A stretch of 64,000 nucleotides of DNA, taken from contig CAVWFY010000006.1 in the NCBI GenBank assembly GCA_963754485.1, positions 83,205 to 147,204 of the forward strand, in the 5' to 3' direction. Both the position numbers and the translations under genes were made by a program. The stretch comes from an uncultured Chloroflexia bacterium (GTDB taxonomy: Bacteria; Chloroflexota; Limnocylindria; Limnocylindrales; CSP1-4). Positions 1,502-41,540 of the stretch are shown piece by piece. The notes beneath the pieces are model-generated. The model saw nothing but the letters and a program-made list of their open reading frames with translations, did not search any database and was not told the DNA's origin. The first letter of the stretch is position 1; every line of letters starts with the position of its first letter.

Positions 1502-1531
1502 TTGACGCCCCACCCGGACCCGGCCTACACT
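1502..1531 (+). promoter_or_regulatory. Sigma70-type promoter for the HTH/membrane-protein operon
   Basis: TTGACG(1502-1507)-18 bp-TACACT(1526-1531). Confidence 0.6.
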
Positions 1532-1561
1532 CGCGCCTCCGATCGATCTCGCGAACCCAGT

Positions 1562-1574
1562 TTTGCCCAGAATC
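1562..1574 (+). promoter_or_regulatory. Candidate operator TTTGCCCAGAATC (copy 1)
   Basis: Identical 13-mer at 40761-40773; CCCAG recurs at a 10 bp period here (1556, 1566). Confidence 0.5.
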
Positions 1575-1613
1575 CAAGGCCTCCCACCGGCCCGGATCTG
1601 CAGTGGAGAACCA

Positions 1614-2392
1614 GTGTCCGATTCCCGGCCGCCCGCGACCGGCCGCCCGCAGACCGACCCCCGCCCGAGCGGCTTGCGCTCGGCGAGGCCAGCCGCCTCC
1701 TGGGCGTCGACCCCGACACCCTGCGTCGCTGGGCCGACGAGGGCCGGGTTCCCGCGTTCACCACGCCTGGCGGCCACCGCCGGTTCGAGCGGCGCGCGCT
1801 GGAGCGGCTCATCGCCGCCCGACGCACCGGCCCCGCAGGCAGCCTCGCGGGCCTCGGCGCGAGCCAGGACCGCCTCTCGGCGGCCTACCGCCGCCGTTAC
1901 GGCGAGCACCACGGCGGCAAGCTCGACCCGCGCGCGACGGTCCCGGCCTCGGAGCGCGAGACGTACCGCGAGCTGGGTCGCAGCCTGGTGGACGCGCTGG
2001 TCCGGCATCTCGATGAGACTGGTCCCCGGCGCGCCCTGGCCGAGCGTGAGGCCGTGGACCTTGCGGCACGCCTGGGCGAGCGCCTCGCGGTCCACGGGGT
2101 CCCGCTCGCGGACGGCGTCTCGATGTTCGTGTCCGCTCGACGTCCGTTCCTCGCCGAGCTGAGCGTCGTCGCCCGCCGACGAGGCGTGGAAGGGGCACGG
2201 ATCGGCGAGCTCTACGACACCTCCACGGGCCTCCTGGACCGGCTGCTCCTGGCCTTTGTCGCCGCCCACGAGGGCGCGACCCAGGAGCTCGCCAGCGCGG
2301 ACGTCCGGGCGCGGCGCGTCGGGGGCGCAGACGCCGGTGACGAGCCAGCCGCAGGTGCTGATGCGTCCGTCGATGCCCGGCCCGGGACCTGA
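1614..2392 (+). CDS. MerR/BldC-like HTH regulator with C-terminal all-helical (globin/RsbRD_N-like) domain; probable frameshift near 1660
   Basis: LGEASRLLGVDPDTLRRWADEGRVPAFTTPGGHRRF; GGAG RBS and GTG at 1614 are out of frame with the HTH across a C-run. Confidence 0.75.
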
Positions 2393-2396
2393 CGCC

Positions 2397-3488
2397 ATGC
2401 CCGCCCTGCTGCCGGCCGTCACCTCGCTGCTGGCGTTCCTGTTCGCGTTGATGCTGCTGGACCAGTGGCGCGAGCGGCGCCACGGCTTCCAGCTGGTCTG
2501 GGCGCTGGGGATGACGTGGTTTGCGATCGGCACGGGCGCCGAGGCGCTCGCTGCGACCGGCGGCTGGAACGAGACGCTCTACCGGATCTGGTACCTGACC
2601 GGTGCCGTGTGGACGGCGGCGTGGCTGGGCCTCGGCACCGCCTACCTGCTGGGTCGGACGCGGTTCGGCTACACGTATGCGGTCCTCCTCCTCCTGTCGG
2701 GGCTGGTTGCCCTGATGATCAGGAACAACCCCGCCTACGCTGGCGCCGGGCCGTTGCCGCTGCTGTATCTCATCGGCACCGTGATCCTGGCCTTGGCCAT
2801 CGGGGTGGAGACCTACTTCGGCAATGACACCTGGCCGCGCTTCGCGGCGGGCGCGATCGTGGGGGTGACGCTGCTCTCGATCGTCCTGATGGTCCTCACG
2901 CCGCCGCTGCCGGCACCTGGGTACGCGCTGAGCCCGCAGACCGGGCAGCCCGTGGGTGACGCGATGCCGGGCTACCTGCGCCTGCTGACCCCTGTCATGA
3001 ACATCCCCGGCGCGCTGGCGCTGCTCCTGGGCGCCGTGTTCTCGGCGTACGTGTTCATGCCCAAGAAGCGGGTGCTGGACTACTCGCTTGACCCGAACCA
3101 GCCGGGCGACCAGTTCCTGTTCAACCTGTGCATCGCCCCCGTGGCGATCGTGGTCAACCTGGTCGCGTCGCTGCCCGGCGCGGCTCGCGACCTGGCGGCC
3201 GGCCGGCTGCACTCGCGGGTCCCGGCGACCATCCTGATCGCGATCGGCGCGTTCTTTCCGACCATCACGGACTCCCTGAACCGCGCGGGCTCCACGGAGC
3301 TGTTCCAGCTGGGCAAGTTCCTGGGCGTAGTGTTCCTGTTCGCCGGGTTCCTCGTCTCGTCCGAGGTGTTCCGCGAGATCCGCATCCCGTTCACGCACAT
3401 CCGCCTCGCGACGCGCCGCCGGGAACGCGCCCACAGGCGGGACCAGGCGGCGGGTGAGGCCCACGAGGCGCCGGCGCCCCAGTCCTGA
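2397..3488 (+). CDS. Uncharacterised polytopic membrane protein (paralogue A)
   Basis: Many hydrophobic segments; ATG 4 nt after the HTH stop; clearly homologous to 39627-40661. Confidence 0.8.
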   Translation: MPALLPAVTSLLAFLFALMLLDQWRERRHGFQLVWALGMTWFAIGTGAEALAATGGWNETLYRIWYLTGAVWTAAWLGLGTAYLLGRTRFGYTYAVLLLLSGLVALMIRNNPAYAGAGPLPLLYLIGTVILALAIGVETYFGNDTWPRFAAGAIVGVTLLSIVLMVLTPPLPAPGYALSPQTGQPVGDAMPGYLRLLTPVMNIPGALALLLGAVFSAYVFMPKKRVLDYSLDPNQPGDQFLFNLCIAPVAIVVNLVASLPGAARDLAAGRLHSRVPATILIAIGAFFPTITDSLNRAGSTELFQLGKFLGVVFLFAGFLVSSEVFREIRIPFTHIRLATRRRERAHRRDQAAGEAHEAPAPQS

Positions 3489-3523
3489 GGCCCACGAGGC
3501 GCAGGAAACGCAGTCCTGAGGCC
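3455..3523. repeat. 31 bp-period tandem repeat (about 2.2 copies) spanning the stop codon
   Basis: TGAGGCCCACGAGGCGC at 3455 and 3486, TGAGGCC at 3517; CAGTCC precedes copies 2 and 3. Confidence 0.75.
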
Positions 3524-3555
3524 GCCCGGCGGTCGCCACCGCTATGCTCGTGCTG

Positions 3556-4368
3556 ATGAACGCCCCGCCCACGCGTCCCTCCCCCGCGGACACGGCTCCA
3601 CGGACCAGTCCGGACACCCGGCCGTGGATCACCCTGGGGCCCGTGGACGCCCCGGGGATCGTGTTCCTCCACGGCACCCGGCTGACGCGCGCCCAGTGGT
3701 GGCCCCAGCTCCGGAGGCTCAGGGGCGCCTACCGGTGCGTGGCCGTGGACCTGCCGGGACACGGCGTCCTCGCGGACCGCCCGTTCACCATCGAGGCGGC
3801 GACCGACCTGGTCCGGACGGCGATCGAGGCCGAGATCCCGTCGGGGCGTGCCGTCATCGTGGGCCTGTCGCTGGGCGGCTACGTGGCGATCGACACGGCC
3901 GAGGCGTATCCCGAGCGCGTCTCGGGCCTCGTGCTGGCGGGATGCTCCGGGGAGGCCTTCGGGCCGATGTCCTGGCCCTACCGCGGCTTCCGCGCGCTGC
4001 TCGAGCGCTTCCCCGACTGGGTCCAGGAGCCGGCGAACAGGGGGTTCTTCCGGCTGCGCTACGGGCGCCTGATCGCAGAGCCCATCATCGCCGGCGGCTT
4101 CTGGCCACGCGGCGGTGCAGCGGCGCTCGCCCTGCTCATCGGCCGCCGATACCTTGACCGCCTGGGGCGGCTGTGGACGCCCGTCCTCGTGGTCAACGGG
4201 TCACTCGACCCGGTGTTCGGGCCGGGAGGCGAGTACTGGGCGGCGTCCTGCCGGCGGGGTCGCCACGTTGTCATCCCGCGCGCCATGCACCTCTCGAACC
4301 TGGATCGCCCGGGCGCCTTCTCCCGCCTGGTCGCCGGGTTCGCGAGTCGGGCCGCACGCGGTCGCTGA
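3556..4368 (+). CDS. Alpha/beta fold hydrolase
   Basis: FLHG, VDLPGHG, GLSLGG nucleophile elbow, late His; TATGCT 7 nt before ATG 3556. Confidence 0.85.
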   Translation: MNAPPTRPSPADTAPRTSPDTRPWITLGPVDAPGIVFLHGTRLTRAQWWPQLRRLRGAYRCVAVDLPGHGVLADRPFTIEAATDLVRTAIEAEIPSGRAVIVGLSLGGYVAIDTAEAYPERVSGLVLAGCSGEAFGPMSWPYRGFRALLERFPDWVQEPANRGFFRLRYGRLIAEPIIAGGFWPRGGAAALALLIGRRYLDRLGRLWTPVLVVNGSLDPVFGPGGEYWAASCRRGRHVVIPRAMHLSNLDRPGAFSRLVAGFASRAARGR

Positions 4369-4454
4369 CGCTCAGCGGCCCAGCCCGCCCGCAGGGGTTG
4401 CGGAACGGTGACGGGTATACTGGGCGCCTCTCCACCTTCCGCCCGAGGCGTTCG

Positions 4455-5333
4455 ATGCGCGTCCGCAAAGCCGTCTTCCCGGCCGCCGGCTGGGGCACCC
4501 GTTTCCTGCCGGCCACCAAGGCCCAGCCGAAGGAGATGCTGCCCCTCGTCGACAAGCCCGTGATCCAGTACGCCGTCGAGGAGGCGGTGGCCGCCGGCAT
4601 CGAGCAGGTCATCATCGTCACGTCCTCCCAGAAGCGGGCCATCGAGGATCACTTCGACCTCAACTACGAGCTGGAGCACCTGCTCGAGGAGAAGGGCGAC
4701 ATCGAGAAGCTGCGCCAGGTCCGCCACATCAGCGACCTTGCGCAGATCGCCTACGTGCGCCAGAAGGAGCAGCTGGGGCTTGGGCATGCGGTGCTCATGG
4801 CCAAGGACCTCATCGGCCACGAGCCGTTCGCCGTCATCCTCCCCGACGACGTGCTGATCGCAGACCGGCCCGTGATCGGCCAGCTGATCCACGCCTATCA
4901 CCAGCACCACGGATCCGTCGTCGCGGTCGCCGAGGTCCCGGACGAGGAGACGAGCCGCTACGGGGTGATCGCGGGCGAGCACATGGACGAGGGCCAGGAC
5001 CGGGAGCGCACCTACCGCATGACCGGCATCGTGGAGAAGCCGGCGCCCGGAACCGCACCCTCGAACCTGGCGGTCATCGGCCGCTACGTGCTGACCCCCA
5101 AGATCTTCGACAAGCTGGAGCAGACGCAGCGCGGGGCCGGCGGTGAGATCCAGCTCACGGATGCCATCCAGGCGCTGATGGAGGAGCAGAGCGTCTTCGG
5201 CTACGCGTTCGAGGGCACCCGCTACGACGCAGGCACCACGATGGGCTGGCTCCGCGCGTCGGTGGAGCTGGCGCTCGCCCGGCCGGAGTTCGGGAGCGAG
5301 TTCCGCGCCTACCTTCGCTCGCTGGACATCTGA
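4455..5333 (+). CDS. galU: UTP--glucose-1-phosphate uridylyltransferase
   Basis: KAVFPAAGWGTRFLPATKAQPKEMLP, GLGHAV, VEKP, GEIQLTDA. Confidence 0.95.
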   Translation: MRVRKAVFPAAGWGTRFLPATKAQPKEMLPLVDKPVIQYAVEEAVAAGIEQVIIVTSSQKRAIEDHFDLNYELEHLLEEKGDIEKLRQVRHISDLAQIAYVRQKEQLGLGHAVLMAKDLIGHEPFAVILPDDVLIADRPVIGQLIHAYHQHHGSVVAVAEVPDEETSRYGVIAGEHMDEGQDRERTYRMTGIVEKPAPGTAPSNLAVIGRYVLTPKIFDKLEQTQRGAGGEIQLTDAIQALMEEQSVFGYAFEGTRYDAGTTMGWLRASVELALARPEFGSEFRAYLRSLDI

Positions 5334-5400
5334 CCCCGGCTGCCGATCGGAGTCCGTGCGGTAGGATGCGCCGTGGCGCGCCATCGGGCGCACGGCACAG

Positions 5401-7314
5401 ATGGGAGACAGGCAGACGGTGACCGAGATCGGGAGCGTGCTGGGCGGGCGGTATCGCCTCGTCGAGCTCCTTGGGCAGGGTGGCATGGCCACGATCTACC
5501 GGGCGCGCGACGCCCAGCTGGATCGCGACGTCGCCGTGAAGCTGCTGCGACCCGAATTCGGGCGCGACCCGGACTTCCTTGCGCGGTTCCGCGACGAGGC
5601 CAAGGCCGCCGCCTCGCTGAGCCATCCGAACATCGTGGCGGTGTTCGACTTCGGCGAGGAGCAGTCCGACCCGTACATCGTGATGGAGCTGATCGACGGG
5701 CAGGACCTGTCCTCGATCCTCCGCGAGAACGGGCCGCTCCCGCCGCGGCAGGCCGCCCGTGTTGCCGCCGAGGTGGCCAAGGCGCTCCAGGCCGCCCACG
5801 TGCGCGGGATCGTCCACCGTGACGTCAAGCCCTCGAACATCCTCGTCGGCCGCGACGGTCGCGTGAAGGTCGCCGACTTCGGCATTGCCCGCGCACTCGA
5901 CGATTCGCAGCTGACGCTGCCGGGCGTGACGATGGGTTCTGTCCACTACTTCAGTCCCGAGCAGGCGCGCGGCGAGCCCGCGACCCAGGCGTCGGACATC
6001 TACTCGCTGGGCATCGTCGTGTACGAGTCGCTCACCGGGAAGCGGCCGTTCTCCGGTGACGGCGCCGCCGCCGTGGCGCTCGCCCGCCTGACCACGACGC
6101 CCCCGCGCCCGTCGGCGATCCGGCCCGGTGTGCCTGCTGCGCTCGACCAGATCGTCCAGCGCGCGATGGCGCTCGATCCGGCCGCACGCTATGCCTCCGC
6201 CGCGTCGATGGCCAGTGCGCTCGAGGGCTGGCTTGCCGACCCCGCCACGCCGGGTACGGCAGCCGTCGCGGGCGCCGCCGTCGGTGCGGCCGGTGCCGCG
6301 GCCACCGTCGCCAGCGCCCAAGCGCGCCCGAACCCCGTCCCGTACCCGCCCGACGCCTATGCGCGCTCGACGCCGCCGGCGGCCCCCGTGACCACGAGCG
6401 GCGCGCCGCCTCCGCCCCCGGCCGCCGATGGCGTGGGTGAGGACGACGGGGGCGGCTCGAGCCCCTGGGGCTGGGTCGCCGGCCTTCTCGGGATCGGCAT
6501 CCTGGCCATCGTGGGTTTCCTCGTGTTCCGCATGCTCACGGGCGGTGGCGGCGAGGAGCCCTCCGCCTCCCCGAGCGAGTCCGCCTCCGGGGCAACGGTC
6601 GAGGTGCCCCGGCTCATCGACATGACGGTCACCGATGCCCAGGCAGCGGCCGATGAGGCCGGCCTGGTCCTCAGGATCACGGGCGAGGAGCGCAGCGACA
6701 TTGAACCGGGCATCGTCCTGGCGCAAGACCCCGGGGAGGGCCAGACCGTCGCCGGTGGCTCCGAGGTCGCCATCACGGTCTCTATCGCCAAGGGCCTCGT
6801 CACGGTGCCGGACATCCGGAACCTCCCTCGCAACCAGGCGGTCCAGCTGATCGCCAGCGAGGACCTGACCGTCGGGACCGAGACGAGCGACTTCAGCCCG
6901 ACCGTGCCCGCCGGCGCCGTGATCTCGCAGAGCCCCAGCCCCGGCATCGCGGTGGCGCCCAAGACGCCGGTGGACTATGTCCTGTCCGACGGCCCCGAGC
7001 CGACACCCAGCCCCACGCCGACCCCGGCGCCCACGCCGACCCCCGCCCCCACGCCGGTTCCCACGCCCACGCCCACCCCGGCGCCCGTGAATGTCGGTGA
7101 TTACCGGTGCGTGACGGTCGAGGAGGCGACCACGAAGATCGACGAGGACGGGTTCACGCTCGGCATCGTGACCTCGTCGCCGGTCGGCATCGACCCGGTT
7201 CCGGGGACCTGGTACGTGATCCAGCAGGATCCAGCCCCGGGCAAGAAGATAGCCCCCGCCTCGGCGATCGACCTCGTCGCCCAGGAGATCGACCCGGCCC
7301 CGAACTGCCCGTAG
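5401..7314 (+). CDS. pknB: PASTA-domain Ser/Thr protein kinase (PknB/Stk1 type)
   Basis: LGQGGMA, VAVK, HRDVKPSN, DFG, SPEQ; one TM helix; about 3 PASTA repeats; Pro-Thr linker near 6995-7085. Confidence 0.9.
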   Translation: MGDRQTVTEIGSVLGGRYRLVELLGQGGMATIYRARDAQLDRDVAVKLLRPEFGRDPDFLARFRDEAKAAASLSHPNIVAVFDFGEEQSDPYIVMELIDGQDLSSILRENGPLPPRQAARVAAEVAKALQAAHVRGIVHRDVKPSNILVGRDGRVKVADFGIARALDDSQLTLPGVTMGSVHYFSPEQARGEPATQASDIYSLGIVVYESLTGKRPFSGDGAAAVALARLTTTPPRPSAIRPGVPAALDQIVQRAMALDPAARYASAASMASALEGWLADPATPGTAAVAGAAVGAAGAAATVASAQARPNPVPYPPDAYARSTPPAAPVTTSGAPPPPPAADGVGEDDGGGSSPWGWVAGLLGIGILAIVGFLVFRMLTGGGGEEPSASPSESASGATVEVPRLIDMTVTDAQAAADEAGLVLRITGEERSDIEPGIVLAQDPGEGQTVAGGSEVAITVSIAKGLVTVPDIRNLPRNQAVQLIASEDLTVGTETSDFSPTVPAGAVISQSPSPGIAVAPKTPVDYVLSDGPEPTPSPTPTPAPTPTPAPTPVPTPTPTPAPVNVGDYRCVTVEEATTKIDEDGFTLGIVTSSPVGIDPVPGTWYVIQQDPAPGKKIAPASAIDLVAQEIDPAPNCP

Positions 7315-7346
7315 GTCCTGGTGTCGTCCGGGGCTGGGAGTCCGGG

Positions 7347-7838
7347 CTAGAAGTCAGGCCAGGGCTCCGGATCGCCCCATAGCCACCACGTGCCCGGAAC
7401 CCGTCCGCCGGTGCCCGTCGCGGGCGAGATGGACGCCGCATGGGCCACCGCTGCGTCCGTCGTGGTCCCGGCCGGGGTCGATGCGTCGTCGCGCGTCATC
7501 GCCCTCGTCTCGGGCTCGACTGGAACAAACGTTCTGAGTTGACGCCCTGATCCGCTGCCCGCATGCGCCTCACGTTCGGACCGGCGACCCGGGCCGACGG
7601 CGATCAGGCGCCGCTCGTCGGGCTCCGCCGCCCGGGGCGCTGCGGTCCAGCAGGCACGCATCTCGGTCCCGTCAAGAGCCGCCCGCTTCGGATCGAGACC
7701 GCACAATCCCAGGCCGCCCGCTATCCCGCGCCGGAAGTGCCGGCAGGTCGCGCACGACGTGGTGGACCGCCGACAGACCCAGCAGCGGGACGACTCCGGC
7801 TGCGGAGAGGCGCAATGCGGGCAACGCCAGACCGGCAT
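7347..7838 (-). CDS. Cys-rich hypothetical protein (zinc ribbon plus second 4-Cys cluster)
   Basis: CPHC...CWVC...CATC-x13-C-x16-CW; TACGAT 7 nt before ATG. Confidence 0.7.
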   Translation of the reverse strand: MPVWRCPHCASPQPESSRCWVCRRSTTSCATCRHFRRGIAGGLGLCGLDPKRAALDGTEMRACWTAAPRAAEPDERRLIAVGPGRRSEREAHAGSGSGRQLRTFVPVEPETRAMTRDDASTPAGTTTDAAVAHAASISPATGTGGRVPGTWWLWGDPEPWPDF

Positions 7839-7897
7839 GGCCCGGATCGTAGCTGCGCTCGAGCCTGCTGTCGAGGCCAATCTGCGCGGACAACGAC

Positions 7898-9106
7898 CTA
7901 CTTGGTGATGGTCAGGACCTGGCGATCGGTGATTGTGCCGTCTCCGGATGTCACCAGGACCGTCGCGAGCCCGCCGCCTGGCGTCGCGCCCGCTGGGATC
8001 GTGGTGGTGAACGCCGCCACGCCGCTCTTGTTGGTCGCGACCTCGCCGGAGACGATCGCCTCGAGGCCCGGGACGCTGATCGTGAACAGGGCCGTCGCGC
8101 CGGCGACGCGCCGGCCGTCGGGGCCAGTGACGGCCACGGTGAGCGTGATGCTCTTGGGCAGCCTGGACGCCTTGTACCGGTAGGCCGAGCTCGTCAGGTT
8201 GGCGGTGAGACGGCCAGAGCCCTTCCGCACGTTGAGCGTCGCGCTGTTCTCGTTCCCCGCCGGGTCCGTGGCGATGACCGTGATGGTGTTGCTGCCGTCA
8301 GCGATCGCCAGGGTGGTCTCCCAGAGGTTGTCCTTGCCGGCCACCGTGGTGGCGATGGCGCCGTTGCTCGCGTTCTGGAGGCGGATCCCTGCGCCGGCCT
8401 GGGACTTGCCCTTGACGGTGATCACCGCCTTCTTGACCTGTGCGTTGTCCTTGGGCGAGATGACGCTCACCTTGGGCTTGGACTGGTCCAGCACCCACGT
8501 GGCGACCGGCGAACGTTCGCTCTCGCCAGCGGGGCCCATGATCGCGGCCTGCATGTCGTTGCGGCCGGCAGTGAGGCCGACTCCCGCGAGCACTTGGGCC
8601 GAGATGCCGCCCACCGGCTCCTCGACGACGAGCTGCGGGTCCTGATCCTTGAGCGTGACGTAGAGGCGGACCGTGTAGCCCTCGAGGCCCGTCACCGCCG
8701 GCGGGACGTTCACGGTGACGTCGACCTCGTCCTGGTTGGTGTACGGCTTCTCGGGGACCTCGATCGACGGGGCGTCGACCAGGTCGGGCGCGTCCGTGGG
8801 CTTGGGGCTGCCCGCAACCACCCCGACCTGCGTGACGAACCCCCCGAACCCCTTCACGACCGAGGAGATGAACGGTCCGACCTGGCCGCTGCCGACCCAC
8901 AGGATCGCGCCACCCAGCATCACGATCGACAGGGCGAGAAGGGCCTTCATGGCGAGTGGGAGCCCGCGCCGGCGCTCGATGCGGCGGTAGCCGCTCAGCC
9001 TGGTGGGCGATGGCGTCACCGGACGCGTGCGCACAGGCGCGGGCCGACCGGTGGAGGGTGGACGGGGCCTGACCTGCGACGGCCGGTCCCCGCGGCGGGG
9101 ATCCAT
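7898..9106 (-). CDS. Membrane-anchored protein with bacterial Ig-like domains
   Basis: Basic N-terminus, single TM, G-x-N-x-I-x-V-x-A-x-D-x-AGN Ig-like signature. Confidence 0.75.
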   Translation of the reverse strand: MDPRRGDRPSQVRPRPPSTGRPAPVRTRPVTPSPTRLSGYRRIERRRGLPLAMKALLALSIVMLGGAILWVGSGQVGPFISSVVKGFGGFVTQVGVVAGSPKPTDAPDLVDAPSIEVPEKPYTNQDEVDVTVNVPPAVTGLEGYTVRLYVTLKDQDPQLVVEEPVGGISAQVLAGVGLTAGRNDMQAAIMGPAGESERSPVATWVLDQSKPKVSVISPKDNAQVKKAVITVKGKSQAGAGIRLQNASNGAIATTVAGKDNLWETTLAIADGSNTITVIATDPAGNENSATLNVRKGSGRLTANLTSSAYRYKASRLPKSITLTVAVTGPDGRRVAGATALFTISVPGLEAIVSGEVATNKSGVAAFTTTIPAGATPGGGLATVLVTSGDGTITDRQVLTITK

Positions 9107-9461
9107 CGGGCTCGATTGTCGCACGAAGCGCGGCGGAGCCCCGCGCCGGGTCGACGCTTGGTCGACGCGCGAGGCGGAGGGGGATCGGCTCGGCCGGCGC
9201 TCCGGTGATACGCTGCGAGCGCGTCGCGGCCCGTTGCCCGGGGCCGCTGGAGGCGAGGGAGCAGTGGAAGCGCGGGACCGGAGACCTGTACGTCCGTCCC
9301 CGGGAGATCGCGGCTCATGGAGCCACGGACCGATCTCCCGCGTCAACCCGCGACCCGCGACCGGCGGCGACCCCGTTCAGGATGGGACCACGGTTCCGGG
9401 ACCGTACCAGCCCCTGCGCAGGCCGCTGCCGGCCGTCGCGCCGCCACGCTCGACCGTCCGC

Positions 9462-9833
9462 ATGGATCCGCGCCAGGTGATGGCCGGCTCTCCCGTCACG
9501 GCCCCGGTCCAGGGCCGGCCGTGGGTGACCCCGTACCCGCTGCGCCCGGGCGCCCCTGCCGGGCCGCGCGCCTCGATGCCGCCCGGGCGCGGCTTCGGCC
9601 TGCCCAGCCTGCGGCGCAACGTCTGCCCGCACTTCTACATGACCGGCACGCGTGGCGCGATCCCGATCCAGGCCCCGCACCTGCTCAAGGGCCTGCTTCG
9701 CCAGCCGAGCACCATCTCGCGCTGCCAGCTGCGCGGGGGGGTCCATCTCGACGAGGGCTTCGTCAACGATGTCTGCCTCACGCCGCGCTTCAACCAGTGC
9801 GTCTTCTACGAGGACGAGCTGACCCGCGAGTGA
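9462..9833 (+). CDS. Pro-rich/Cys-containing hypothetical protein coupled to folC (may start at 9317 across a frameshift)
   Basis: CPHF...C...C...CVFY; stop overlaps the folC GTG (GTGA). Confidence 0.6.
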   Translation: MDPRQVMAGSPVTAPVQGRPWVTPYPLRPGAPAGPRASMPPGRGFGLPSLRRNVCPHFYMTGTRGAIPIQAPHLLKGLLRQPSTISRCQLRGGVHLDEGFVNDVCLTPRFNQCVFYEDELTRE

Positions 9834-33408: not shown

Positions 33409-33471
33409 GTGGGAGAGATCCTCGTACGGCGCTGGACACCCCGAACCGGGACGCGGAGCGGGGGCACCGCG

Positions 33472-33572: not shown

Positions 33573-34415
33573 ATGCGCACGCTGCGGGTCGCCCTCGTCC
33601 AGCTCGAGGCGCGTGACGATGTTGACGCCAACATCGTCCACGCGGTGGCCCTCGCCCACGAGGCCGCCGTCGAGAGCGACCTCGTGGTCCTGCCGGAGTA
33701 CGTGCAGTACCGCGGCACGCCCGAGGGGTGGCGCCAGTCTGCGCGCCCGGTGCCCGGTCCCACGACCGACCCGTTCGCGTCCGTCGCGCGCGAGCACGGT
33801 TGCTGGATCCTGGCCGGGACCCGCGCCGAGGCATCCGGCGATCCCCTCCGCCCCTACAACACCGCCGTCGTCATCGATCCGTCCGGGGCGCTCGTGGCGC
33901 GGTACCGCAAGGTGCACCTGTTCGACGTCGCGGTGGAGGACGGACCGCAGACCACGGAGTCGTCGAAGGTGACCCCGGGCGACGGGCTGGTGGCCGTCGA
34001 TCTGGCAGGGACGCGGCTCGGGCTCTCGATCTGCTACGACCTGCGGTTCCCGGAGCTGTACCGCGCGCTCGCCCTGGCCGGCGCCGAGGTGCTCGCCGTG
34101 CCGTCCGACTTCAGTGCGCGGACCGGCCGCGACCACTGGGAGGTCCTGCTCCGTGCCCGGGCGATCGAGAGCGGGGCGTGGGTGCTGGCGGCCGGGAGCT
34201 GCGGGGCCGGCGGCCCGGGGGCGATCCCGGCCTGGGGCCACTCGATGGTGGTGGACCCGTGGGGACGGGTGGTCGCGCAGGCGGCGGACGACGAGGCGAT
34301 CGTCCGGGCGGAGCTGGACCTCGACCAGGTGACCGCGACACGGCGGCAGATCCCGGCGCTCGCCAACGTGCGGCCGGACGCGCTGCCGCCGGCACGGGTC
34401 GTACGGGTGGTTTGA
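33573..34415 (+). CDS. Carbon-nitrogen hydrolase (Nit1/deaminated glutathione amidase-like)
   Basis: LPE, YRKVHLFD, SICYDLRFPEL, ARAIE, GHSMVVDPWG. Confidence 0.92.
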   Translation: MRTLRVALVQLEARDDVDANIVHAVALAHEAAVESDLVVLPEYVQYRGTPEGWRQSARPVPGPTTDPFASVAREHGCWILAGTRAEASGDPLRPYNTAVVIDPSGALVARYRKVHLFDVAVEDGPQTTESSKVTPGDGLVAVDLAGTRLGLSICYDLRFPELYRALALAGAEVLAVPSDFSARTGRDHWEVLLRARAIESGAWVLAAGSCGAGGPGAIPAWGHSMVVDPWGRVVAQAADDEAIVRAELDLDQVTATRRQIPALANVRPDALPPARVVRVV

Positions 34416-34855
34416 TGCGCGGCCTGCTGGTCGCCGTCGGGATGGCGGTGGTGTGTGCCGCCTGCGGCTCCCAGCCGGCTTCGCCTGTCGAGGGCGCCGC
34501 CTAGCCCAGCACCGCGTTCCTGGCCCGCCACAAGCCGATGAACGGGGGCCCTGCGGCGATCGTATCGGGCACGCTTGTCGAACGGGACGGATGCCTGTTG
34601 CTCGAGGTCGCGGGCGGCAGCGCGCTCGCCCTGTGGCCACCCGACGCGTCCGCGTGGGTCATCGACGGCGTGACCACGATCGTCGACGGGAAGGGTCGCC
34701 CCGCGGTTGCCGTGGGTGCCATGGCGTCGTTCGGTGGCGGGTATGACTACCCGCTGGACTGGGCCGAGACACAGGCGGGGCCAATCCCGGAGCGCTGCCG
34801 CACGGGCACGTACCTGCTCGTCAACGACCTCGAGCGGATCGTCCTGGAGCCGTAG
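34415..34855 (+). pseudogene. Putative lipoprotein interrupted by an in-frame TAG at 34502-34504
   Basis: Signal peptide with CAAC lipobox; the downstream ORF 34538-34855 is in the same frame. Confidence 0.6.
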
Positions 34856-35031
34856 CCGCGCGACTCCGTCCGCACCCCCGCCCCTGGCGCGCCTCATCCG
34901 GGATGGGATCGCATCCGGGCCGTCCACGACGGGCCCGCTGGCCGAAACCCGACCTTGGGGCACCGGTGGTGCGGGGAACGTGCGGGCTTCATCCGATCGC
35001 GGATCACGGAGCGATCGGGCACCCCGGAGCC

Positions 35032-35098
35032 TTGCGCTGCCGCCCGCCGGGGCGCACAATAGGTGGTGCACATCCACCCACGACTGAGCATCTGCTCA
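35032..35098 (+). promoter_or_regulatory. Promoter plus palindromic operator TGAGCA-TC-TGCTCA (35085-35098)
   Basis: TTGCGC-17-CACAAT; perfect inverted repeat of SorC/LsrR-like style upstream of a SorC-family gene. Confidence 0.65.
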
Positions 35099-35113
35099 CT
35101 CCCCGGAGGGACG

Positions 35114-36107
35114 ATGCCGTCCCTGGACATGCTGGCGCCCGACGAGTTCGAGCTGCTGGCGCGGCTCTCGCTCGGCTACTACGAGGACGGCCTCACGCAG
35201 GAGGCCCTGGCCCGGCAGCTTCGGCCTCTCGCGGCCGAAGGTGCAGCGCCTGCTCGATCGGGCGCGCGCGACCGGCGTCGTCGACATCCGGATCGCGAAG
35301 CCCCCGTGGCTCCACGTGGACCTCGAGCGTGAGCTGCGGGAGCACTTCGCGCTGCGCGAGGTGATCGTCGCCCCGGATCGGGCGGACCCCCAGGCGCAAC
35401 GCGAGGAGGTCGCCCGCGGCGCGGCGCGGTACCTGGAGCGCAGGCTCGAGGACGGCGCCGTCGTGGCCGTCAGCCACGGCCGCGACACCGGCGAGGTCCC
35501 GCGCTTCTTCGGCCCCCGCCGGCGCATCGACGCGACGTTCGTGAGCGCGATGGGCGGCTCGCCCCTCGCGGACTCCCCGACCAACCCGAACGAGATCGTC
35601 CGGCGCCTCGCGGACCGCTGCGGCGGCCAGGCGATGGGGCTCTACGCGCCGGCCTACGTCGAGAGCGGCCGGATGCGCGACCAGCTCCTGCGCCAGCCGG
35701 CCGTCGCGGAGACCCTCCGCGCCGCGGCCGCGGCGTCGGTCGCCCTGGTCGGGATCGGCGGCACGGACGACGCCTGCACGATGGTCCGGAGCGGCTGTTT
35801 CTCGATCGACGAGCTCCGCCGTCTGCGCGCCGCCGGCGCCGTCGGCGACGTGCTCGGCAACTACGTCGATGTCCACGGCCGGCGCCTGGAGTCCCCGGAG
35901 ACGGCGCGGCTCGTGGGCCTGGGCCTCGACGAGCTCCGGGCGATCGACACCGTGGTGGTCGTCGTGAGCGAGAGCGAGAAGCCGTTCGCGATCCTCGGCG
36001 TGCTGCGCACGGGGATCGTGGACGTCCTCGTCGTCGACGAGTCCAATGCGCACGTCCTCCTCGAGGCGGTGCGCGAGTCGAACCTGCGTCCCAGATCGGA
36101 GGTGTGA
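35114..36107 (+). CDS. SorC/DeoR sugar-binding transcriptional regulator; frameshift near 35215
   Basis: YYEDGLTQEAL..GLSRPKVQRLL HTH, LVGIG, GAVGD, VLVVDE. Confidence 0.88.
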
Positions 36108-36108
36108 C

Positions 36109-36960
36109 GTGCCGGTCGTCCCGACACAGGAGATCCTCAAGCGGGCGTTCGCGGAGCGCTACGGCGTCGCGGCCATCAACGTGGTCAACGACCTGACCAT
36201 GGAGGCGGTCCTCGCCGCCGCCGAGGAGCTGCAGGCCCCGCTGATCGTCCAGACGTCCGTCAAGCACGTGGAGATGACCGGCGTCGAGGTCATGTACGCG
36301 ATGTGGGCCGAGATGACGAAGCGCATCTCGGTGCCCGTGGCCCTCCACCTGGACCACTGCCCGGACCGGGCGGTCATCTCGGCCTGCCTCGCGGCGGGCT
36401 GGAACTCGGTCCTGTTCGACGCCTCCAAGCTGACCGTCGAGGAGAACAAGCGCCAGTGCATCGAGGTCGTCGCCGAGGCCCGCCGCTACGGCGCGCTGGT
36501 GGAGGGCGAGATCGAGGGCTTCAAGCGCACCGAGGAGATGACGGGCGACGAGGCCGAGCACGTCCAGACCCTCGAGACGGTCGTGGACTTCGTCGAGGCG
36601 ACCGGCGTGGACGTCTTCGCGCCGGCGATCGGCAACGCGCACGGCACCTACAAGACGGCGCCGCACCTCGACTCGCAGCGGGTGACGGACATCGTGGAGG
36701 CCACCGGCATCCCGGTCGCCCTCCACGGCGGCACGGGGATGTCCGCGGAGCAGTTCACGGACCTCATCAGCCGCGGCTGCGCCAAGGTCAACATCTCCAC
36801 GGCGCTCAAGATCGCGTTCATGAAGTCCGGCTACGACTTCATGACCGAGAACCCCGGCAAGTACGACCCGCCGTCGATCTTCAAGGCACAGCGGGCCGCG
36901 GTGAAGGACATGGCGGCGGACCACATCCGCAAGTTCGGCAGCGTCGGCAAGGCCTGGTAG
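36109..36960 (+). CDS. Class II fructose/tagatose-bisphosphate aldolase
   Basis: LHLDH, SVLFDAS, VEGEI, IGNAHG, LHGGTG, KVNIST. Confidence 0.93.
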   Translation: MPVVPTQEILKRAFAERYGVAAINVVNDLTMEAVLAAAEELQAPLIVQTSVKHVEMTGVEVMYAMWAEMTKRISVPVALHLDHCPDRAVISACLAAGWNSVLFDASKLTVEENKRQCIEVVAEARRYGALVEGEIEGFKRTEEMTGDEAEHVQTLETVVDFVEATGVDVFAPAIGNAHGTYKTAPHLDSQRVTDIVEATGIPVALHGGTGMSAEQFTDLISRGCAKVNISTALKIAFMKSGYDFMTENPGKYDPPSIFKAQRAAVKDMAADHIRKFGSVGKAW

Positions 36961-36964
36961 CCCG

Positions 36965-37739
36965 ATGAGCACGCTCATCTTCGACTGCGACGGCGTGCTC
37001 GCCGACACCGAGCGCTACGGGCACCTCCCGTCGTTCAACCAGACCTTCGAGGAGTTCGGGCTGCCGTTCCGGTGGTCCGAGGAGGAGTACGGGCGCAAGC
37101 TCGCGATCGGCGGCGGCAAGGAGCGGATGAGCTCCATGCTGACGCCCGAGGTCATCCGGCGAGGCCGGCCTGCCGGAGGATCCGGAGGCGCTCGCCGCCG
37201 AGGTCGCGAAGTGGCACAAGCGCAAGACCGCCATCTACACGGAGATGGTCGCGGCGGGGAAGCTCCCCCCGAGACCCGGCATCCGCCGCCTCATCGGCGA
37301 GGCGCAGGACGCCGGCTGGACGCTCGCCGTGGCCTCCACGTCGGCCGAGCCGGCGGTGCGGGCCATCCTCGGCTACGCCGTGGGCCAGGAGCGGGCCGAC
37401 CGGTTCGATCTCGTGCTCGCGGGTGACGTGGTCCCGAAGAAGAAGCCCGATCCCGCCATCTACCTGCTCGCCCTCGAGCGGCTGGCCGTCCCTCCGGCCG
37501 ACGTGCTCGTGGTGGAGGACTCGCGCAACGGCCTGCTCGCCGCCGTCGGCGCCGGCCTGCGCTGCCTGATGACCGTCAACGGCTACACGGAGGAGGAGGA
37601 CAGCAGCGAGGCAATCCTGGTGGTGTCGTCACTTGGAGATCCCGACGGCGAGCGGACGCGGGTGATCGCGAACCGCAGCAAGGCATCGCCGGGGAGCTAC
37701 GTCACGCTCGCGGATCTCGAGGCCGTGCTGGCTTCGTAA
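36965..37739 (+). CDS. HAD-IA hydrolase, CbbY-like; frameshift near 37160
   Basis: FDCDGVLADTE..GH, IGGGKERM, KKPDPAIY, VEDSRNG. Confidence 0.88.
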
Positions 37740-37778
37740 CGCGGCGGCAGGAGGATCAACCCTCGAAGGGAGGTTGGG

Positions 37779-38440
37779 ATGGCAGCGTCATCCCTCGACG
37801 ATCTCGACCTCGTCGTCATGACGATGGCCAACACGATCGTCGACAACGCGGACTACTTCGCCCAGCTCGACTCGATCGTGGGCGACGGCGACTTCGGGTA
37901 CTCGCTGCGCAGCGGCTGGGAGGTGGTCCTCGCGGACTACGACTCCTGGGACAAGCCCAACGCGGGCGCGGTCTGCAAGAAGATCGGCCTCACGCTCGCC
38001 GCCAAGGTCGGCGGTGTCAGCGGCCCGATGTGGGGCACGGCGTTCCTGCGGGCCGGCGCCACGGCGGGCGACCAGGATCTCACGCCCGACCTGGTGATCG
38101 CGATGCTCCGTGCGGCGATCGCCGGGATCATGACGCGCGGCGGGGCCTCCCTCGGCGACAAGACGCTGCTCGACGCTCTCTCCCCGGCGACCGACAGCCT
38201 CGAGGAGAGCTTCAAGGACCCGGCGACATTCGAGGACCACGGCGTGGCCGCGATCCAGCGAGCGGCCGACGTGGCCGTCCAGGCCGCGCGAGGACACCAA
38301 GGGCATGCTCGCGCTCCGCGGGCGCGCGGCCTACACGGGCGACCGGAGCCGGGACTCGGTGGACGCCGGCGCCACCGCCATCGGTGTGATCCTGCAGGCC
38401 ATCGCGGCGGCCTGGCGGGACAAGCACGGCACAGCAGTAA
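37779..38440 (+). CDS. dhaL: Dihydroxyacetone-kinase subunit L family; frameshift(s) near 38290 and probably 38430
   Basis: LDSIVGDGDFG, GGVSGPMWG, GDKTLLDAL, GRAAY.GDRS..DAGA. Confidence 0.85.
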
Positions 38441-38452
38441 GGGAACGCCATC

Positions 38453-39449
38453 GTGAAGAAGTTCGTCAACGACCCCAAGCAGTTCGTGCCCGAGTTCCTC
38501 GAGGGCGTCATGCTCGCCAGCGACGGCACGCTGAAGTACGAGCCCAAGTACAACCTGATCTACCGGGCCGACATGCCCAAGCCGGACCGGGTGTCGATCA
38601 TCCAGGGCTCGGGCTCCGGGCACGAGCCGGCGCACACGATGATCGTGGGCCCGGGCATGCTCGACGCGGCCTGCCCCGGCGACGTCTTCGCGGGCCCGCC
38701 CGTGGAGTTCGTGACCGAGACCTCCAAGCTGATGGACACGCCGGCCGGCGTGCTCTACATCGTCAACAACTACACCGGCGACCGCACCGCGTGGGAGATG
38801 GCCCGCGAGATGTGCGAGGCCGAGGGCCAGAAGATCGGCTGGCTGCTCGTCAACGACGACGTGGCGGTCAAGGACTCCACCTGGACCGTCGGGCGCCGCG
38901 GCGTGGCCGGCAACTTCTTCGTCATCAAGGCCGCGGCCGCGATGGCGGACAAGGGCGGCTCGCTCGAGGAGTGCGTGCGCGTCGGCGAGAAGGTCATCGG
39001 CCAGGTCCGGACGATGGGCATCGCCCTCTCGTCCTGCACCCCGCCGGTGCGCGGCACGCCGCTGTTCGAGATCGCGGACGACGAGATGGAGGTCGGCATC
39101 GGCATCCACGGCGAGCCGGGCCGCCAGCGGACCAAGATCATGCCCGCCAACGAGATCGTGGACCTGCTGCTGGACGCGATCGTTCCCGACCTGCCGTTCG
39201 TGGCCGGCGACGAGGTCGCCGTCATGGTCAACGGCCTCGGCGGCACCCCGATCACCGAGCTCTACCTGCTCTACGGCAGCCGCCCACAAGAAGCTCGCCG
39301 AGAAGGGCATCACGGTCTTCCGCAGCTACGTCGGCGAGTACTGCACGTCGCTCGAGATGGCCGGCGCGCACATCTCGCTGCTCAAGGTCGACGCGGAGCT
39401 CAAGGAGCTGCTCCTGGCCCCGGCGGAGGTCGCCTACCGCGTCTTCTGA
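38453..39449 (+). CDS. dhaK: Dihydroxyacetone-kinase subunit K family; frameshift near 39280
   Basis: GSGSGHEPAH, NYTGD, GRRGVAG, GIHGEPG, TSLEMAG. Confidence 0.9.
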
Positions 39450-39471
39450 GCCATCGCCTGTTCGAGGATTC

Positions 39472-39512
39472 GAGACGCCCGGCCCCGTGCCGGGCGTCTC
39501 CATGTCCGGCGC
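39472..39512 (+). terminator. GC hairpin followed by an 18 bp repeat (CGTCTCCATGTCCGGCGC, 39495-39512)
   Basis: GAGACGCCCGGC-N5-GCCGGGCGTCTC after dhaK; no U tract. Confidence 0.55.
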
Positions 39513-39626
39513 GAGGGCGGGGGAGTGGGAGTCCGTGAGGCGTGTCCCGGCCGCGTCCGACTCCCACGCGAGTCACGGCTCCGGGTCGGCGGTGCCGTCG
39601 GGGGTGCGCCCGGGGCGCCGCGACCG

Positions 39627-40661
39627 TCAGACCGCCTCTTGCCGCACCTTGAACACGCGGCGGGTGAACGGGATGCGGAACTCGCGGAAGACCTCGACCG
39701 AGACGAGCGTGCCGGCGAACAGGAAGATCACGCCCAGCAGCTCGCCCAGGAAGAACGTCTCGGTGATGCCGAAGCGCGACAGGCCCGACGTCAGCGACGG
39801 GATGAAGCCGCCGATCGCCAGCAGGATCGTCGCGGGGACGCGCGAGTTGAGCTTGCCGGCGAACAGGGCGGTGACCGTGCCCGGGATGGAGGCGAGGAGG
39901 TTGACGGTGATGGCGATCGGGGCGATGGCGAGGTTGACCAGGAAGCGTCCGACGCCCCGCGTGCGCGCCAGGTCGTAGCGCATGACCCGCTTCTTGGGCA
40001 TGTACATGTACGTGCTGTAGAGCGCGCCGAGGGCCAGCGCGAAGCCGCCCGTCACGTTGAACAGCGGGGTGAGCAGCCGGACGGATCCCGGCATCGCCGT
40101 GCCGACCGGGATGCCGTTGGCGTCGAGTGCATATCCCGGGGGCGGGATCACCGCGGTGAGGACGATGGGGATCGCGACCACGGAGCCGCCGATGATCAGG
40201 GCCCCGGCGATCCAGGACCAGCGCCCGGTGCCCCGGTAGGTCTCGATGACGATGAGGATCGCGCCGACGGTCGCGATCGCGAAGGCGGCGTAGGGGAGGA
40301 TCCCGGTGTCGGTGTACTGCGCCTTCGCCTGGGCGAGGACCGTGAACAGGCCGGCCAGGACGACCGAGAAGGCAGCGCCGTACCCGAACCGTGTCTTGCC
40401 CAGCAGGTACATCGTCCCAAGGCCCAGCCAGGCGGCGACGTAGACCGCCCCGATGAGGTACCAGACCCGGTACAGCGGCTCGCTCCAGCCGTAGGCGCCA
40501 CCCAGGAACTCGGTGCCGGCGGAGATCCCGTACCAGACCATGCCGATCGTCCAGATCAGCTGGTACGAGCGTCGCCGCTCCAGCCACTGGTCCAGCAGGA
40601 ACAGCGCGAAGACGAAGCTCAGGAGGGATGACAGGAAGGGGAGCAGGACGTTGGGCTGCAC
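39627..40661 (-). CDS. Uncharacterised polytopic membrane protein (paralogue B of 2397-3488)
   Basis: Shared LLDQW.ERR..QL.W, LYR.WYL.GAV..AAWLGLGT.YLLG, MPKKRV, SRVPATIL, EVFRE.RIPFT; GAGGTG RBS. Confidence 0.85.
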   Translation of the reverse strand: MQPNVLLPFLSSLLSFVFALFLLDQWLERRRSYQLIWTIGMVWYGISAGTEFLGGAYGWSEPLYRVWYLIGAVYVAAWLGLGTMYLLGKTRFGYGAAFSVVLAGLFTVLAQAKAQYTDTGILPYAAFAIATVGAILIVIETYRGTGRWSWIAGALIIGGSVVAIPIVLTAVIPPPGYALDANGIPVGTAMPGSVRLLTPLFNVTGGFALALGALYSTYMYMPKKRVMRYDLARTRGVGRFLVNLAIAPIAITVNLLASIPGTVTALFAGKLNSRVPATILLAIGGFIPSLTSGLSRFGITETFFLGELLGVIFLFAGTLVSVEVFREFRIPFTRRVFKVRQEAV

Positions 40662-40703
40662 GCGCGGACACCTCGGTTTCCCGGGACCTCGCCCGGTGAT
40701 CGA

Positions 40704-40773
40704 ACAGTATCGACCTGCACGGGGTGCCTCAATGTGCCCATGGATGATGCGCAGGCGAGATTTGCCCAGAATC
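40704..40773. promoter_or_regulatory. Minus-strand promoter TTGAGG-17-TACTGT and candidate operator TTTGCCCAGAATC (copy 2, 40761-40773)
   Basis: Read directly in the divergent intergenic region. Confidence 0.55.
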
Positions 40774-40880
40774 GGTCCCCCGGAGGGCATGGATCGTTGG
40801 ATACCCATCCGGGCAGCCACGTCGGGCGAATAGGTGGTCGAACCCGAGACAGGCCCCCCGCACCTGGAGCACCCGCCCCG

Positions 40881-41540
40881 ATGAACATCCGCAGGAACGT
40901 CTCGCTCGCGCTCGTCGGCGCGGCCTTCACGACGGCCATCGCCGTCCCCGCCGTCTCCGCGGCGACGCCGGTGAACGCCCCCGCCGGCTCCGTCCTCGAC
41001 CTGCTCGAGGCCGACGGCACCGCCTTCGACGGTAACTGGTACGACTTCGACATCCTCGAGGCTGCCGCGCGCGTCGTGGTGGACGGCAAGCCGGGCACGA
41101 CTGTCGCCGCGCTTGCCAACCCGGCCGCCAGCCTGACCGTCCTCGCCCCCAACGATCGCGCCTTCCAGGTCCTCGCCCACAGCCTCACCGGCAAGTGGTA
41201 CGGCACCGAGGCGGGCGTGCTCGGCGGCATCGCCGGCGCCATCACGAACGGCCTCAAGGCCGACCTCGAGGACACGCTCGAGACGGTCCTGCTCTACCAC
41301 GTCATCGGCGGCAAGGCGACCTTCGCGGACGTCAAGGCGCTGAGTGGCAAGTCCGTTCCGACGGTCGGCGGCGGCTCGATCGGCATCAAGTACTACCCGT
41401 GGCTCAACCTCGTCGTCCTGCGTGACGCGGACACCGACGACGCGAACCCGTGGGTCGTCAACAGCAAGCGCAACATCGCCGTCGGCAACAGCATCGTGCA
41501 CGGCATCAGCCTGGTGCTGCGGCCCATCAACCTCCCGTAA
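40881..41540 (+). CDS. Secreted fasciclin (FAS1) domain protein
   Basis: Signal peptide, TVLAPNDRAF, VLLYHVI, IVHGISLVL. Confidence 0.88.
   Translation: MNIRRNVSLALVGAAFTTAIAVPAVSAATPVNAPAGSVLDLLEADGTAFDGNWYDFDILEAAARVVVDGKPGTTVAALANPAASLTVLAPNDRAFQVLAHSLTGKWYGTEAGVLGGIAGAITNGLKADLEDTLETVLLYHVIGGKATFADVKALSGKSVPTVGGGSIGIKYYPWLNLVVLRDADTDDANPWVVNSKRNIAVGNSIVHGISLVLRPINLP

Follow-up and report, generated by a model that had tools for sequence, protein, structure and literature searches.

A BldC-like regulator with a sensor-globin-like domain and a candidate tandem-repeat operator in Candidatus Limnocylindrales

A 64,000-nucleotide stretch of contig CAVWFY010000006.1 (assembly GCA_963754485.1; hereafter the window, meaning the whole stretch analysed) carries what is best explained as a conserved three-gene cassette of Candidatus Limnocylindrales: a 117-aa Cys-containing protein, a regulator that joins a BldC-like helix-turn-helix (HTH) to a domain resembling a sensor globin, and a membrane protein translationally coupled to the regulator. 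A tandem direct repeat lies between the predicted regulator promoter and the regulator start codon. We propose that the regulator is an autoregulated one-component system that would bind such repeats in the manner of BldC and block transcription just past its start. It would also serve a small, lineage-variable regulon, including a second locus of the window where a paralogue of the membrane protein (paralogue 2) stands divergent from a fasciclin gene. Judged from sequence comparison, we put the probability of this proposal at roughly 0.65. Neither this type of regulator nor its partner membrane protein nor the repeat has been described. The names borne by near-identical proteins assign the window to Candidatus Limnocylindrales, within Chloroflexota. 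Limnocylindria are abundant uncultured bacteria of freshwater and soil, and to our knowledge almost nothing of their regulation has been characterised.

The tandem repeat beside the regulator promoter

An earlier note, made from the letters of the window, had drawn attention to a 13-mer, TTTGCCCAGAATC. Both copies that it reported are present, at 1562-1574 and 40761-40773, each on the + strand. With up to 2 mismatches allowed, nothing else in the window matches (shuffled sequences gave a mean of 0.26, and 2 was reached in 3 of 100), and with up to 1 allowed, nothing else matches in the whole assembly, a 57%-complete, high-GC sequence of 2,827,924 bases (2.83 Mb), in which a reversed-pattern control gave 0. 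The note had allowed that the motif might be common genome-wide; it is rare, with two exact copies. The 13-mer consists of the T-tract and second unit of a tandem direct repeat, ACCNAG-NTTT-RCCNAG-RTTY, in which two (sometimes three) 10-bp direct units share the general form RCCNAG-NTTY. Among the extra half-sites that the note had listed, the ACCCAG at 1555 is the first repeat unit; the others belong to different elements, described below with the second copy. Each unit, GATTTGCCC or GATTTACCC, combines an A/T tract with a G/C box.

The repeat begins about 23 nt past the -10 box of the regulator promoter and is followed by a variable stretch and then by GGAG and a GTG start codon. We aligned the leaders of 21 loci of the genus, each with a regulator gene directly before a membrane gene. 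The note had considered that orthologues might lack the motif upstream. They do not: the position and sequence of the repeat are kept in all 21. The promoter hexamers align and are kept in 20, the -35 box being missing in locus L024. Going by consensus, TTGACG-TACACT is probably a sigma-A-type promoter of the regulator operon, and similar hexamers are found in other genera as well.

A weight matrix was built from 19 sites of other genomes, the window's own genome being left out. It gave the regulator-side repeat 26.5 bits, the top score of this genome among about 5.66 million positions. We also searched 121 genomes across the class with the C-terminal domain of the regulator as query (a tally that takes in five unpublished genomes, on which none of the specific claims made here depends) and found the domain in 91. 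The order 117-aa Cys protein, regulator, membrane protein of the paralogue-1 type recurs in 16 of 19 class-wide regulator loci, drawn from six genera. The repeat reaches at least 17 bits in 16 of the 19 loci, and these are exactly the 16 cassette loci; the three non-cassette loci hold more distant regulator paralogues and score 8.0, 12.9 and -2.4 bits. Where the promoter fell inside the printed stretch of a class-wide locus, the repeat stands about 20-25 nt after a TTGACN...TANNNT promoter. Elsewhere the repeat is sparse. The degenerate pattern has 1-3 matches per genome in five genomes and, with one mismatch, 141 matches versus 39 for the reversed control across the 70 genomes of the genus that we used for motif and fasciclin counts; 68 of the 70 hold at least one.

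How might such a site work? Protomers of the regulator would bind the 10-bp repeats head-to-tail along one face of the DNA, in BldC fashion. Because the site is placed just downstream of the transcription start, binding there would repress the regulator's own operon. The globin domain may take a small hydrophobic ligand or a membrane signal, which would alter DNA binding or oligomerisation. Further copies of the repeat would define a small and variable regulon, including the paralogue-2/fasciclin intergenic region of the window and, in relatives, sites adjoining genes for a LysM-M23 peptidase, an NHL-repeat protein and signal peptidase I.

Perhaps the repeat is bound by some other factor (a paralogous HTH-globin regulator, a nucleoid-type protein or an alternative sigma factor), and the adjacent regulator does not regulate itself? 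Relatives do carry paralogous regulators with very similar repeats, and a 3' or convergent intergenic location is seen for some sites. However, the repeat attains 17 bits in all 16 cassette loci and in 0 of the 3 non-cassette paralogues, and its distance from the regulator's own promoter is fixed across six genera. We consider a different binder very unlikely.

Nor does the conserved block look like a leader RNA element. No Rfam family matched anywhere in the window at the gathering score, and RNAalifold predicted 0 base pairs, without covariation, for 20 regulator leaders. Since an Rfam family and a consensus RNA structure are both absent, a DNA site fits better. At other sites the block is also found in either orientation with respect to the genes around it. 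A riboswitch, a small-RNA target or an attenuator would suit a block that belongs to the transcribed leader and precedes the start codon by about 40-75 nt, but we find that explanation scarcely credible.

The regulator and its partners in the cassette

The autoregulation proposed here turns on the kinship of the regulator with BldC, which the earlier note had suggested in calling the HTH MerR/BldC-like. Pfam places the HTH open reading frame (ORF) in HTH_17 (43.4 bits), MerR (PF00376; 39.7 bits, cut-off 28.2) and MerR_1 (PF13411; 31.8 bits, cut-off 21.6), all above cut-off. By sequence, its best matches in the PDB are the BldC-DNA complexes 6AMK and 6AMA (E 1.5e-6); the third-best is 8JBS, a LitR-like cobalamin-binding protein (E 2.1e-5). 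By fold, BldC is again nearest. In an AlphaFold model of the regulator (mean predicted local distance difference test score [pLDDT], 82.9), the HTH was aligned by Foldseek to BldC 6AMK_A with a template modelling (TM) score, taken on the target, of 0.88 and a root-mean-square deviation (rmsd) of 1.4 Å over 51 columns at 37% identity, and VIA-align gave Z values of 8.2-8.5. The BldC structural report (PMC5859096) gives Lys26, Arg30, Trp31, Lys36, Leu43, Gly44 and His46 roles in DNA contact or head-to-tail interaction. With the numbering mapped by hand from the PDB sequence alignment, Arg30, Trp31, Gly44 and His46 have identical counterparts in the regulator, whereas Lys36 is replaced by Arg, Lys26 by Asp and Leu43 by Pro.

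For the C-terminal domain of about 160 residues, the note had guessed at a globin or RsbRD_N fold, and the structural comparison bears this out. VIA-align ranked highest 3PMD (Z 12.2, 153 residues aligned, rmsd 4.0) and 3PMC (Z 12.2, 132 residues, rmsd 2.6), the non-haem sensor globins pXO1-118 and pXO2-61, along with the stressosome RsbR domain 3ZTA (Z 11.5) and RsbR 2BNL (Z 9.5); Z values of this size, about 9.5-12.2, are only moderately specific for helical domains. Haem globin sensors rank after the RsbR-type proteins (Z 9-10). Most of the 120 homologues listed carry a precomputed PF14361 (RsbRD_N) match, but our own hmmscan of two orthologues gave none. The domain has no invariant His; Arg is invariant at positions 110, 114, 171 and 185 (numbering of the L009 orthologue). 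RsbR-type globins are reported to hold a fatty acid via a conserved Arg (PMC8717448). The predicted model finds its closest match in an RsbR-type non-haem sensor-globin-like fold. A full-text literature search returned no paper linking BldC with globins, and a search for RsbRD_N returned work on mycobacterial stressosomes.

The regulator gene cannot be read straight through in this assembly. The note had given its ORF as 1614-2392. The GTG at 1614 is indeed the conserved start, in frame with the HTH in 20 of 20 orthologues, but in this window alone it is out of frame, and the HTH lies in the frame of the 1409..2392 ORF. The note's phrase of a "repaired" protein is hence apt. At 1620-1653 the window has about 14 extra bases and locus L006 has 15. 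Both of the metagenome contigs from other samples that span this stretch (2 of 2) carry one extra base, behind 1635 or 1639, that restores the frame. A second gene behaves similarly: a relative's DhaK aligns to the window's dhaK (ORF 38453-39538) as far as about 39277, beyond which the alignment runs on in a different frame to about 39446. Since this conserved gene also shifts frame, assembly indel errors are likely. We conclude that the missing base of the regulator is probably an assembly error, a real mutation being a possible alternative. Orthologous regulators measure 230-291 aa, apart from that of locus L022 (genome G015), where the regulator ORF reads into the membrane ORF with no stop codon between them. 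This could be a fusion or an error, and we give it little weight because the same metagenome-assembled genome has a frame break inside the membrane gene.

Membrane protein 1 starts 4 nt past the regulator stop codon. The note had called it and membrane protein 2 clear paralogues, which they are (53% identity over 329 aa, E 1e-113), of an uncharacterised family, which is also the case: no Pfam or NCBIfam model reached its cut-off for either protein, for 33 distant representatives or for all 30 alignment members. The family is large, with 1130 cluster representatives (E up to 0.001), and occurs in 141 of 301 sampled Chloroflexota genomes, three of them unpublished. Its long form has about 345 aa and its short form about 240-300 aa, without the internal helices; the shortest members have about seven helices and the long form three more. 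An AlphaFold2 (AF2) model of membrane protein 1 (mean pLDDT 91.5, predicted TM score 0.87) shows ten helices and a conserved C-terminal hairpin; the cytoplasmic tail, VFRExRIPFT, is likewise conserved. Foldseek found no PDB match for it at E up to 0.001. In an exhaustive VIA-align scan the top 50 rows were almost all eukaryotic seven-transmembrane (7TM) receptors (Z 10-13, 201-247 residues, rmsd 4.1-5.9 Å), matches that may reflect a generic helix-bundle arrangement only. HisKA_7TM (PF16927) and 7TMR-DISM_7TM (PF07695) each matched 1 of the 30 members below cut-off, with E 0.055 and 0.0016, and the window protein matched 0 families. The ESM Atlas gave a 7TM-type score of 0.81, a weak lead, and its clusters were all unnamed Chloroflexota ones. 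Because the structural rows, the HisKA_7TM and 7TMR-DISM_7TM leads and the Atlas lead agree, we speak of a receptor-like seven-helix core, function unknown, on what are weak leads from models and profiles.

Is this protein a signalling partner of the regulator, or is it a regulated target, such as a transporter, a flippase or an enzyme for the hydrophobic ligand of the globin? No transporter or enzyme fold emerged from the Foldseek search. The top VIA-align rows are mostly receptors, with the proviso on helix bundles given above, and most invariant residues of the family are Gly, Trp, Leu or Ala, with neither acidic nor His residues conserved. A target role, of the kind known from many regulator-plus-transporter pairs, would nevertheless agree with the operon layout and its 4-nt gap, and with the fatty acid that RsbR-type globins are reported to bind (PMC8717448). 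It would agree, too, with the breadth of the family in Chloroflexota and with the existence of the gene on its own: in a sister family of small genomes (1.0-1.4 Mb) one copy, of the paralogue-2 type, is present in 16 of 16, and the regulator was found in 0 of the 5 sampled. We treat the target role as a serious contender and lean against it. A complex prediction for regulator residues 1-235 with the membrane protein scored 0.00 against a mark of 0.32 and carries no weight either way. In one locus, L110 of genome G463, two membrane-family genes follow the regulator in tandem.

The first gene of the cassette encodes a protein with five Cys. Its 892 homologues are all unnamed or "hypothetical", and the named sources are Candidatus Limnocylindrales. 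The best 120 of these 892 are 68-97% identical to it, so that its conservation exceeds that of the regulator, and the system may have in it a third component. A bolder scheme can be drawn, in which the receptor-like seven-helix protein, which lacks an output domain, and perhaps the Cys protein would relay a lipid or envelope signal to the globin, which would then gate a BldC-type, filament-like head-to-tail assembly on the 10-bp repeats, with fasciclin, the LysM-M23 peptidase, the NHL-repeat protein and signal peptidase as the regulon. We regard this scheme as distinctly unlikely in its entirety.

The second motif copy and the candidate regulon

The same matrix gives the second copy, at 40754-40775, 16.1 bits, the fourth-highest score of the genome; the first unit of this copy is poor. 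The probability of a score of at least 16 in a random 480-nt stretch of this genome is 0.0006. The copy points to the fasciclin gene and away from paralogue 2. That the ORF at 40881-41540 encodes a fasciclin protein, divergent from the paralogue, was part of the earlier note and is confirmed by Pfam (PF02469, 38.6 bits versus a cut-off of 22). The gene is accessory, present in 11 of the 70 genus genomes. In 19 genus loci with paralogue 2, the gene that usually stands divergent to it is a homologue of 41718-42416, and fasciclin is inserted between the two in only 3. The upstream regions of paralogue 2 reach 10 bits in only 3 of these 19 loci. Because of this, the motif link to paralogue 2 is not general, and the note's claim that a shared motif joins the two membrane paralogues is not supported in that form. 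The motif is a minority feature of the paralogue-2 intergenic region.

Five close fasciclin orthologues have a motif-like sequence 128-149 nt before the start codon, in the orientation of the gene. Four of the sites score 16.1, 16.2, 10.8 and 3.9 bits; the fifth (L051) is a register-shifted copy scoring below 3. The five loci fall into two sub-groups with different flanks, and the motif persists in both. An unusual AGAAT variant is common to both sites of this genome, and the sites of genome G058 have AGAAT and AGAAC. In genome G082, where fasciclin is absent, a 29.6-bit site occupies the same intergenic region on the opposite side of a conserved block, which suggests a separate gain. Genome G012 has an inverted motif pair in its paralogue-2 intergenic region. 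Because of the G082 and G012 sites, this region appears to have gained the motif more than once. The same two sites led us to drop the simpler view that the second motif is just carried along with fasciclin.

Some features of this region stand apart from the motif itself. In G012 (locus L026, about 2670-2710) the two inverted motif copies make up an inverted repeat with 15-nt arms and an 8-nt spacer. It directly follows the stop codon of a gene, on the upstream side of paralogue 2, and may act either as an operator or as a terminator-like hairpin. In the window, the TGTGCCCA and GGCATGGAT blocks near 40735 and 40786, which the note had counted among its half-sites, are other conserved elements, found also in paralogue-2 loci that lack the motif. 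The conserved blocks CTCAATGTGCCC (40727-40745) and GGCATGGATCGTTCGATA-like (40786-40803) flank the second motif; most of the 19 paralogue-2 loci have them, loci without the motif included. Both blocks probably serve paralogue 2 and its divergent neighbour as promoter or operator elements.

Perhaps, then, the regulator-side repeat is a real operator and the copy at 40754-40775 is a neutral or chance look-alike, so that the cassette has no link to paralogue 2 or fasciclin? Its low chance probability argues otherwise, as do the absence of the exact 13-mer elsewhere in 2.83 Mb and the AGAAT variant in both sites of this genome (with AGAAT/AGAAC in G058). Further, the motif survives in two fasciclin sub-groups with differing flanks, and in G082 and G012 it occupies another position within this intergenic region. 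On the side of a neutral copy are the rarity of the motif upstream of paralogue 2, the lower score (16.1 versus 26.5 bits at the primary site) with the poor first unit, and the shared ancestry of the five close fasciclin loci, whose sites are not independent. In addition, a consensus promoter and terminator scan of 40600-40950 found nothing, and hence no sigma-70-like promoter near the fasciclin site. On balance we think a neutral copy unlikely, though well short of negligible.

Which other genes might the regulator serve? In 3 related genomes the repeat lies between the genes for Rho and a LysM-M23 peptidase, in the same orientation. Between folE and a gene for an NHL-repeat secreted protein it has the opposite orientation, in 2 relatives and in this genome (C17:86554). 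The latter site, on contig C17 at about 86540-86730 (locus L117, outside the window), is on the minus strand just 3' of folE and is second in matrix rank with 19.0 bits. In G058 the corresponding site precedes the NHL-repeat gene, of which this genome keeps just the last codons; the folE site has a conserved leader of roughly 150 nt. A three-unit repeat of the GGTCTACCCAGCTTTGCCCAGATG type occurs in many genus genomes (L118 of G006, L147-L153 and L166) 3' of an aldehyde dehydrogenase gene. It adjoins a signal peptidase I or chlorite-dismutase-like gene, often in a convergent intergenic region, and has no evident target gene. A theme of secreted and envelope proteins among the recurrent sites is suggestive. 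The mixed orientations and 3' positions are unexplained by the regulon model.

Paralogous HTH-globin regulators, 40-44% identical in the C-terminal domain, have similar repeats upstream of themselves. Loci L154, L155 and L156 (genomes G067, G010 and G061) and L149 (G085) hold such regulators with tandem repeats of the ACCCAGATATACCCAGATT type, and in L154 a further pair, of the GGCAGATTTGGGAGGTTT type, stands near the start codon. Because these paralogues bear their own tandem repeats, we suggest a regulator family with related operators and possible cross-talk.

Several observations weigh against the proposed autoregulation and regulon. Related genomes do not make independent samples. The reading frame of the regulator is broken in this assembly. 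The match of the HTH to the NCBIfam model HTH_BldC (NF033787; 47.8 bits, E 9.5e-13) falls under the curated cut-off of 77, two of the BldC residues named above are changed (Lys26 to Asp and Leu43 to Pro), and the repeat period is 10 bp here but 9 bp in BldC. For the sensor domain, hmmscan of two orthologues at E up to 10 gave no PF14361 match. At the second locus, the scarcity of the motif upstream of paralogue 2 and the empty promoter scan count in the same direction, as does the degeneracy of two of the five close fasciclin sites. Lastly, several recurrent secondary sites are 3' of genes or oppositely oriented, a poor fit to simple promoter control.

Taken together, the earlier interpretation is partly supported: the regulator, the sensor fold and the operator hold well, and the link between the two paralogues holds weakly. 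Of the proposed one-component system controlling the membrane family and fasciclin, the putative operator beside the regulator's promoter stands, and control of fasciclin is qualified by the accessory nature of that gene. If the autoregulation that we propose is true, the binding mode of BldC extends to signal-responsive one-component regulators. The site of 22-30 bp and the protein of about 240 aa make an easy test case, and two unannotated families, the membrane family and the 117-aa Cys protein, gain a first functional context. Coordinates are collected in Table 1, where those of the sensor domain are carried over from the L009 orthologue model.

Table 1. Features of the cassette and of the paralogue-2/fasciclin region, in window coordinates
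Feature	Position	Strand	Basis or remark
117-aa Cys-containing protein, first cassette gene	1101..1454	+	No Pfam/NCBIfam match; upstream of regulator in 16/19 loci
Probable regulator-operon promoter: TTGACG (1502-1507), 18-nt spacer, TACACT (1526-1531)	1502..1531	+	Consensus
Tandem direct repeat ACCCAGTTTT-GCCCAGAATC, 10-bp period, proposed operator	1555..1576	+	Kept in 21/21 loci
GGAG ribosome-binding site (1605-1608) and conserved GTG start codon (1614)	1605..1616	+	Orthologue alignment
Stretch with frame error, one base short versus close relatives	1620..1653	+	Orthologues, metagenome contigs
BldC-like winged HTH domain of regulator	1673..1825	+	Pfam, PDB sequence, Foldseek
RsbR-type non-haem sensor-globin-like domain of regulator (predicted)	1829..2314	+	VIA-align; PF14361 precomputed on homologues; ORF stop 2390-2392
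Membrane protein 1, 363 aa, 10 predicted helices and C-terminal beta-hairpin	2397..3488	+	AF2 model
Membrane protein 2, 344 aa, paralogue of membrane protein 1	39627..40661	-	53% identity
Likely paralogue-2 promoter: TTGAGG (40732-40727), 17-nt spacer, TACTGT (40709-40704)	40704..40732	-	Read from the sequence; conserved in 19-locus alignment; no hit in consensus scan
Second motif copy GGCGAGATTTGCCCAGAATCGG, facing fasciclin	40754..40775	+	16.1 bits, rank 4
Fasciclin-domain protein, N-terminal signal-like hydrophobic stretch	40881..41540	+	PF02469
232-aa protein without family; usual divergent neighbour of paralogue 2 if fasciclin is absent	41718..42416	+	For example, G082 locus L161

Comparison with known systems

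Classical MerR regulators have a long coiled-coil dimerisation helix and act on a palindromic operator placed in an over-long promoter spacer of 19-20 bp. The system described here differs on each count. Its conserved site is a direct repeat past the -10 box, the promoter spacer is 18 nt, and the regulator model has a 12-residue helix after the wing, followed by a low-confidence linker, with no long coiled-coil helix.

CarH and LitR (5C8D, 8JBS) share with the regulator an N-terminal MerR-like HTH followed by a helical sensor part, and CarH is in the Foldseek list. However, Pfam found no B12-binding domain (PF02310/PF02607) in the regulator at E up to 10, and its C-terminal domain is nearest to RsbR-type globins rather than to a helical bundle with a Rossmann module.

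RsbR, pXO1-118 and pXO2-61 are the best structural matches of that domain (Z 9.5-12.2 over 130-153 residues), and the domain lacks an invariant His. The sequence identity is about 10%. The known domains of this type are joined to STAS or stand alone and act via protein partners, whereas here the domain is fused to a DNA-binding domain.

Prokaryotic 7TM sensor modules (PF16927, PF07695) resemble the membrane family in the roughly seven helices of its shortest members and in the 7TM receptors that form its best structural rows. The family nevertheless falls below every cut-off and has no output domain, and its long form has three additional helices.

BldC remains the nearest relative of the DNA-binding part. 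In PMC5859096 it is described as the sole MerR-like protein consisting of a winged HTH only and as a head-to-tail binder of direct repeats, with 9-bp units of the form AATTXXXX(C) (for example, GATTTCCCC and CATTTGCAC). The winged HTH of the regulator is 33-37% identical to that of BldC and retains the GGHRR[FY] motif. The proposed target is likewise a tandem direct repeat of an A/T tract and a G/C box, and the unit GATTTGCCC is much like the BldC unit GATTTCCCC. Beyond the longer period, the differences are that BldC has 68 residues and no effector domain, whereas the regulator adds a domain of about 160 residues, and that the site here is downstream of the promoter of the regulator's own gene. 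What is new is that a BldC-type HTH is joined to a sensor globin, in the company of two protein families that lack annotation.

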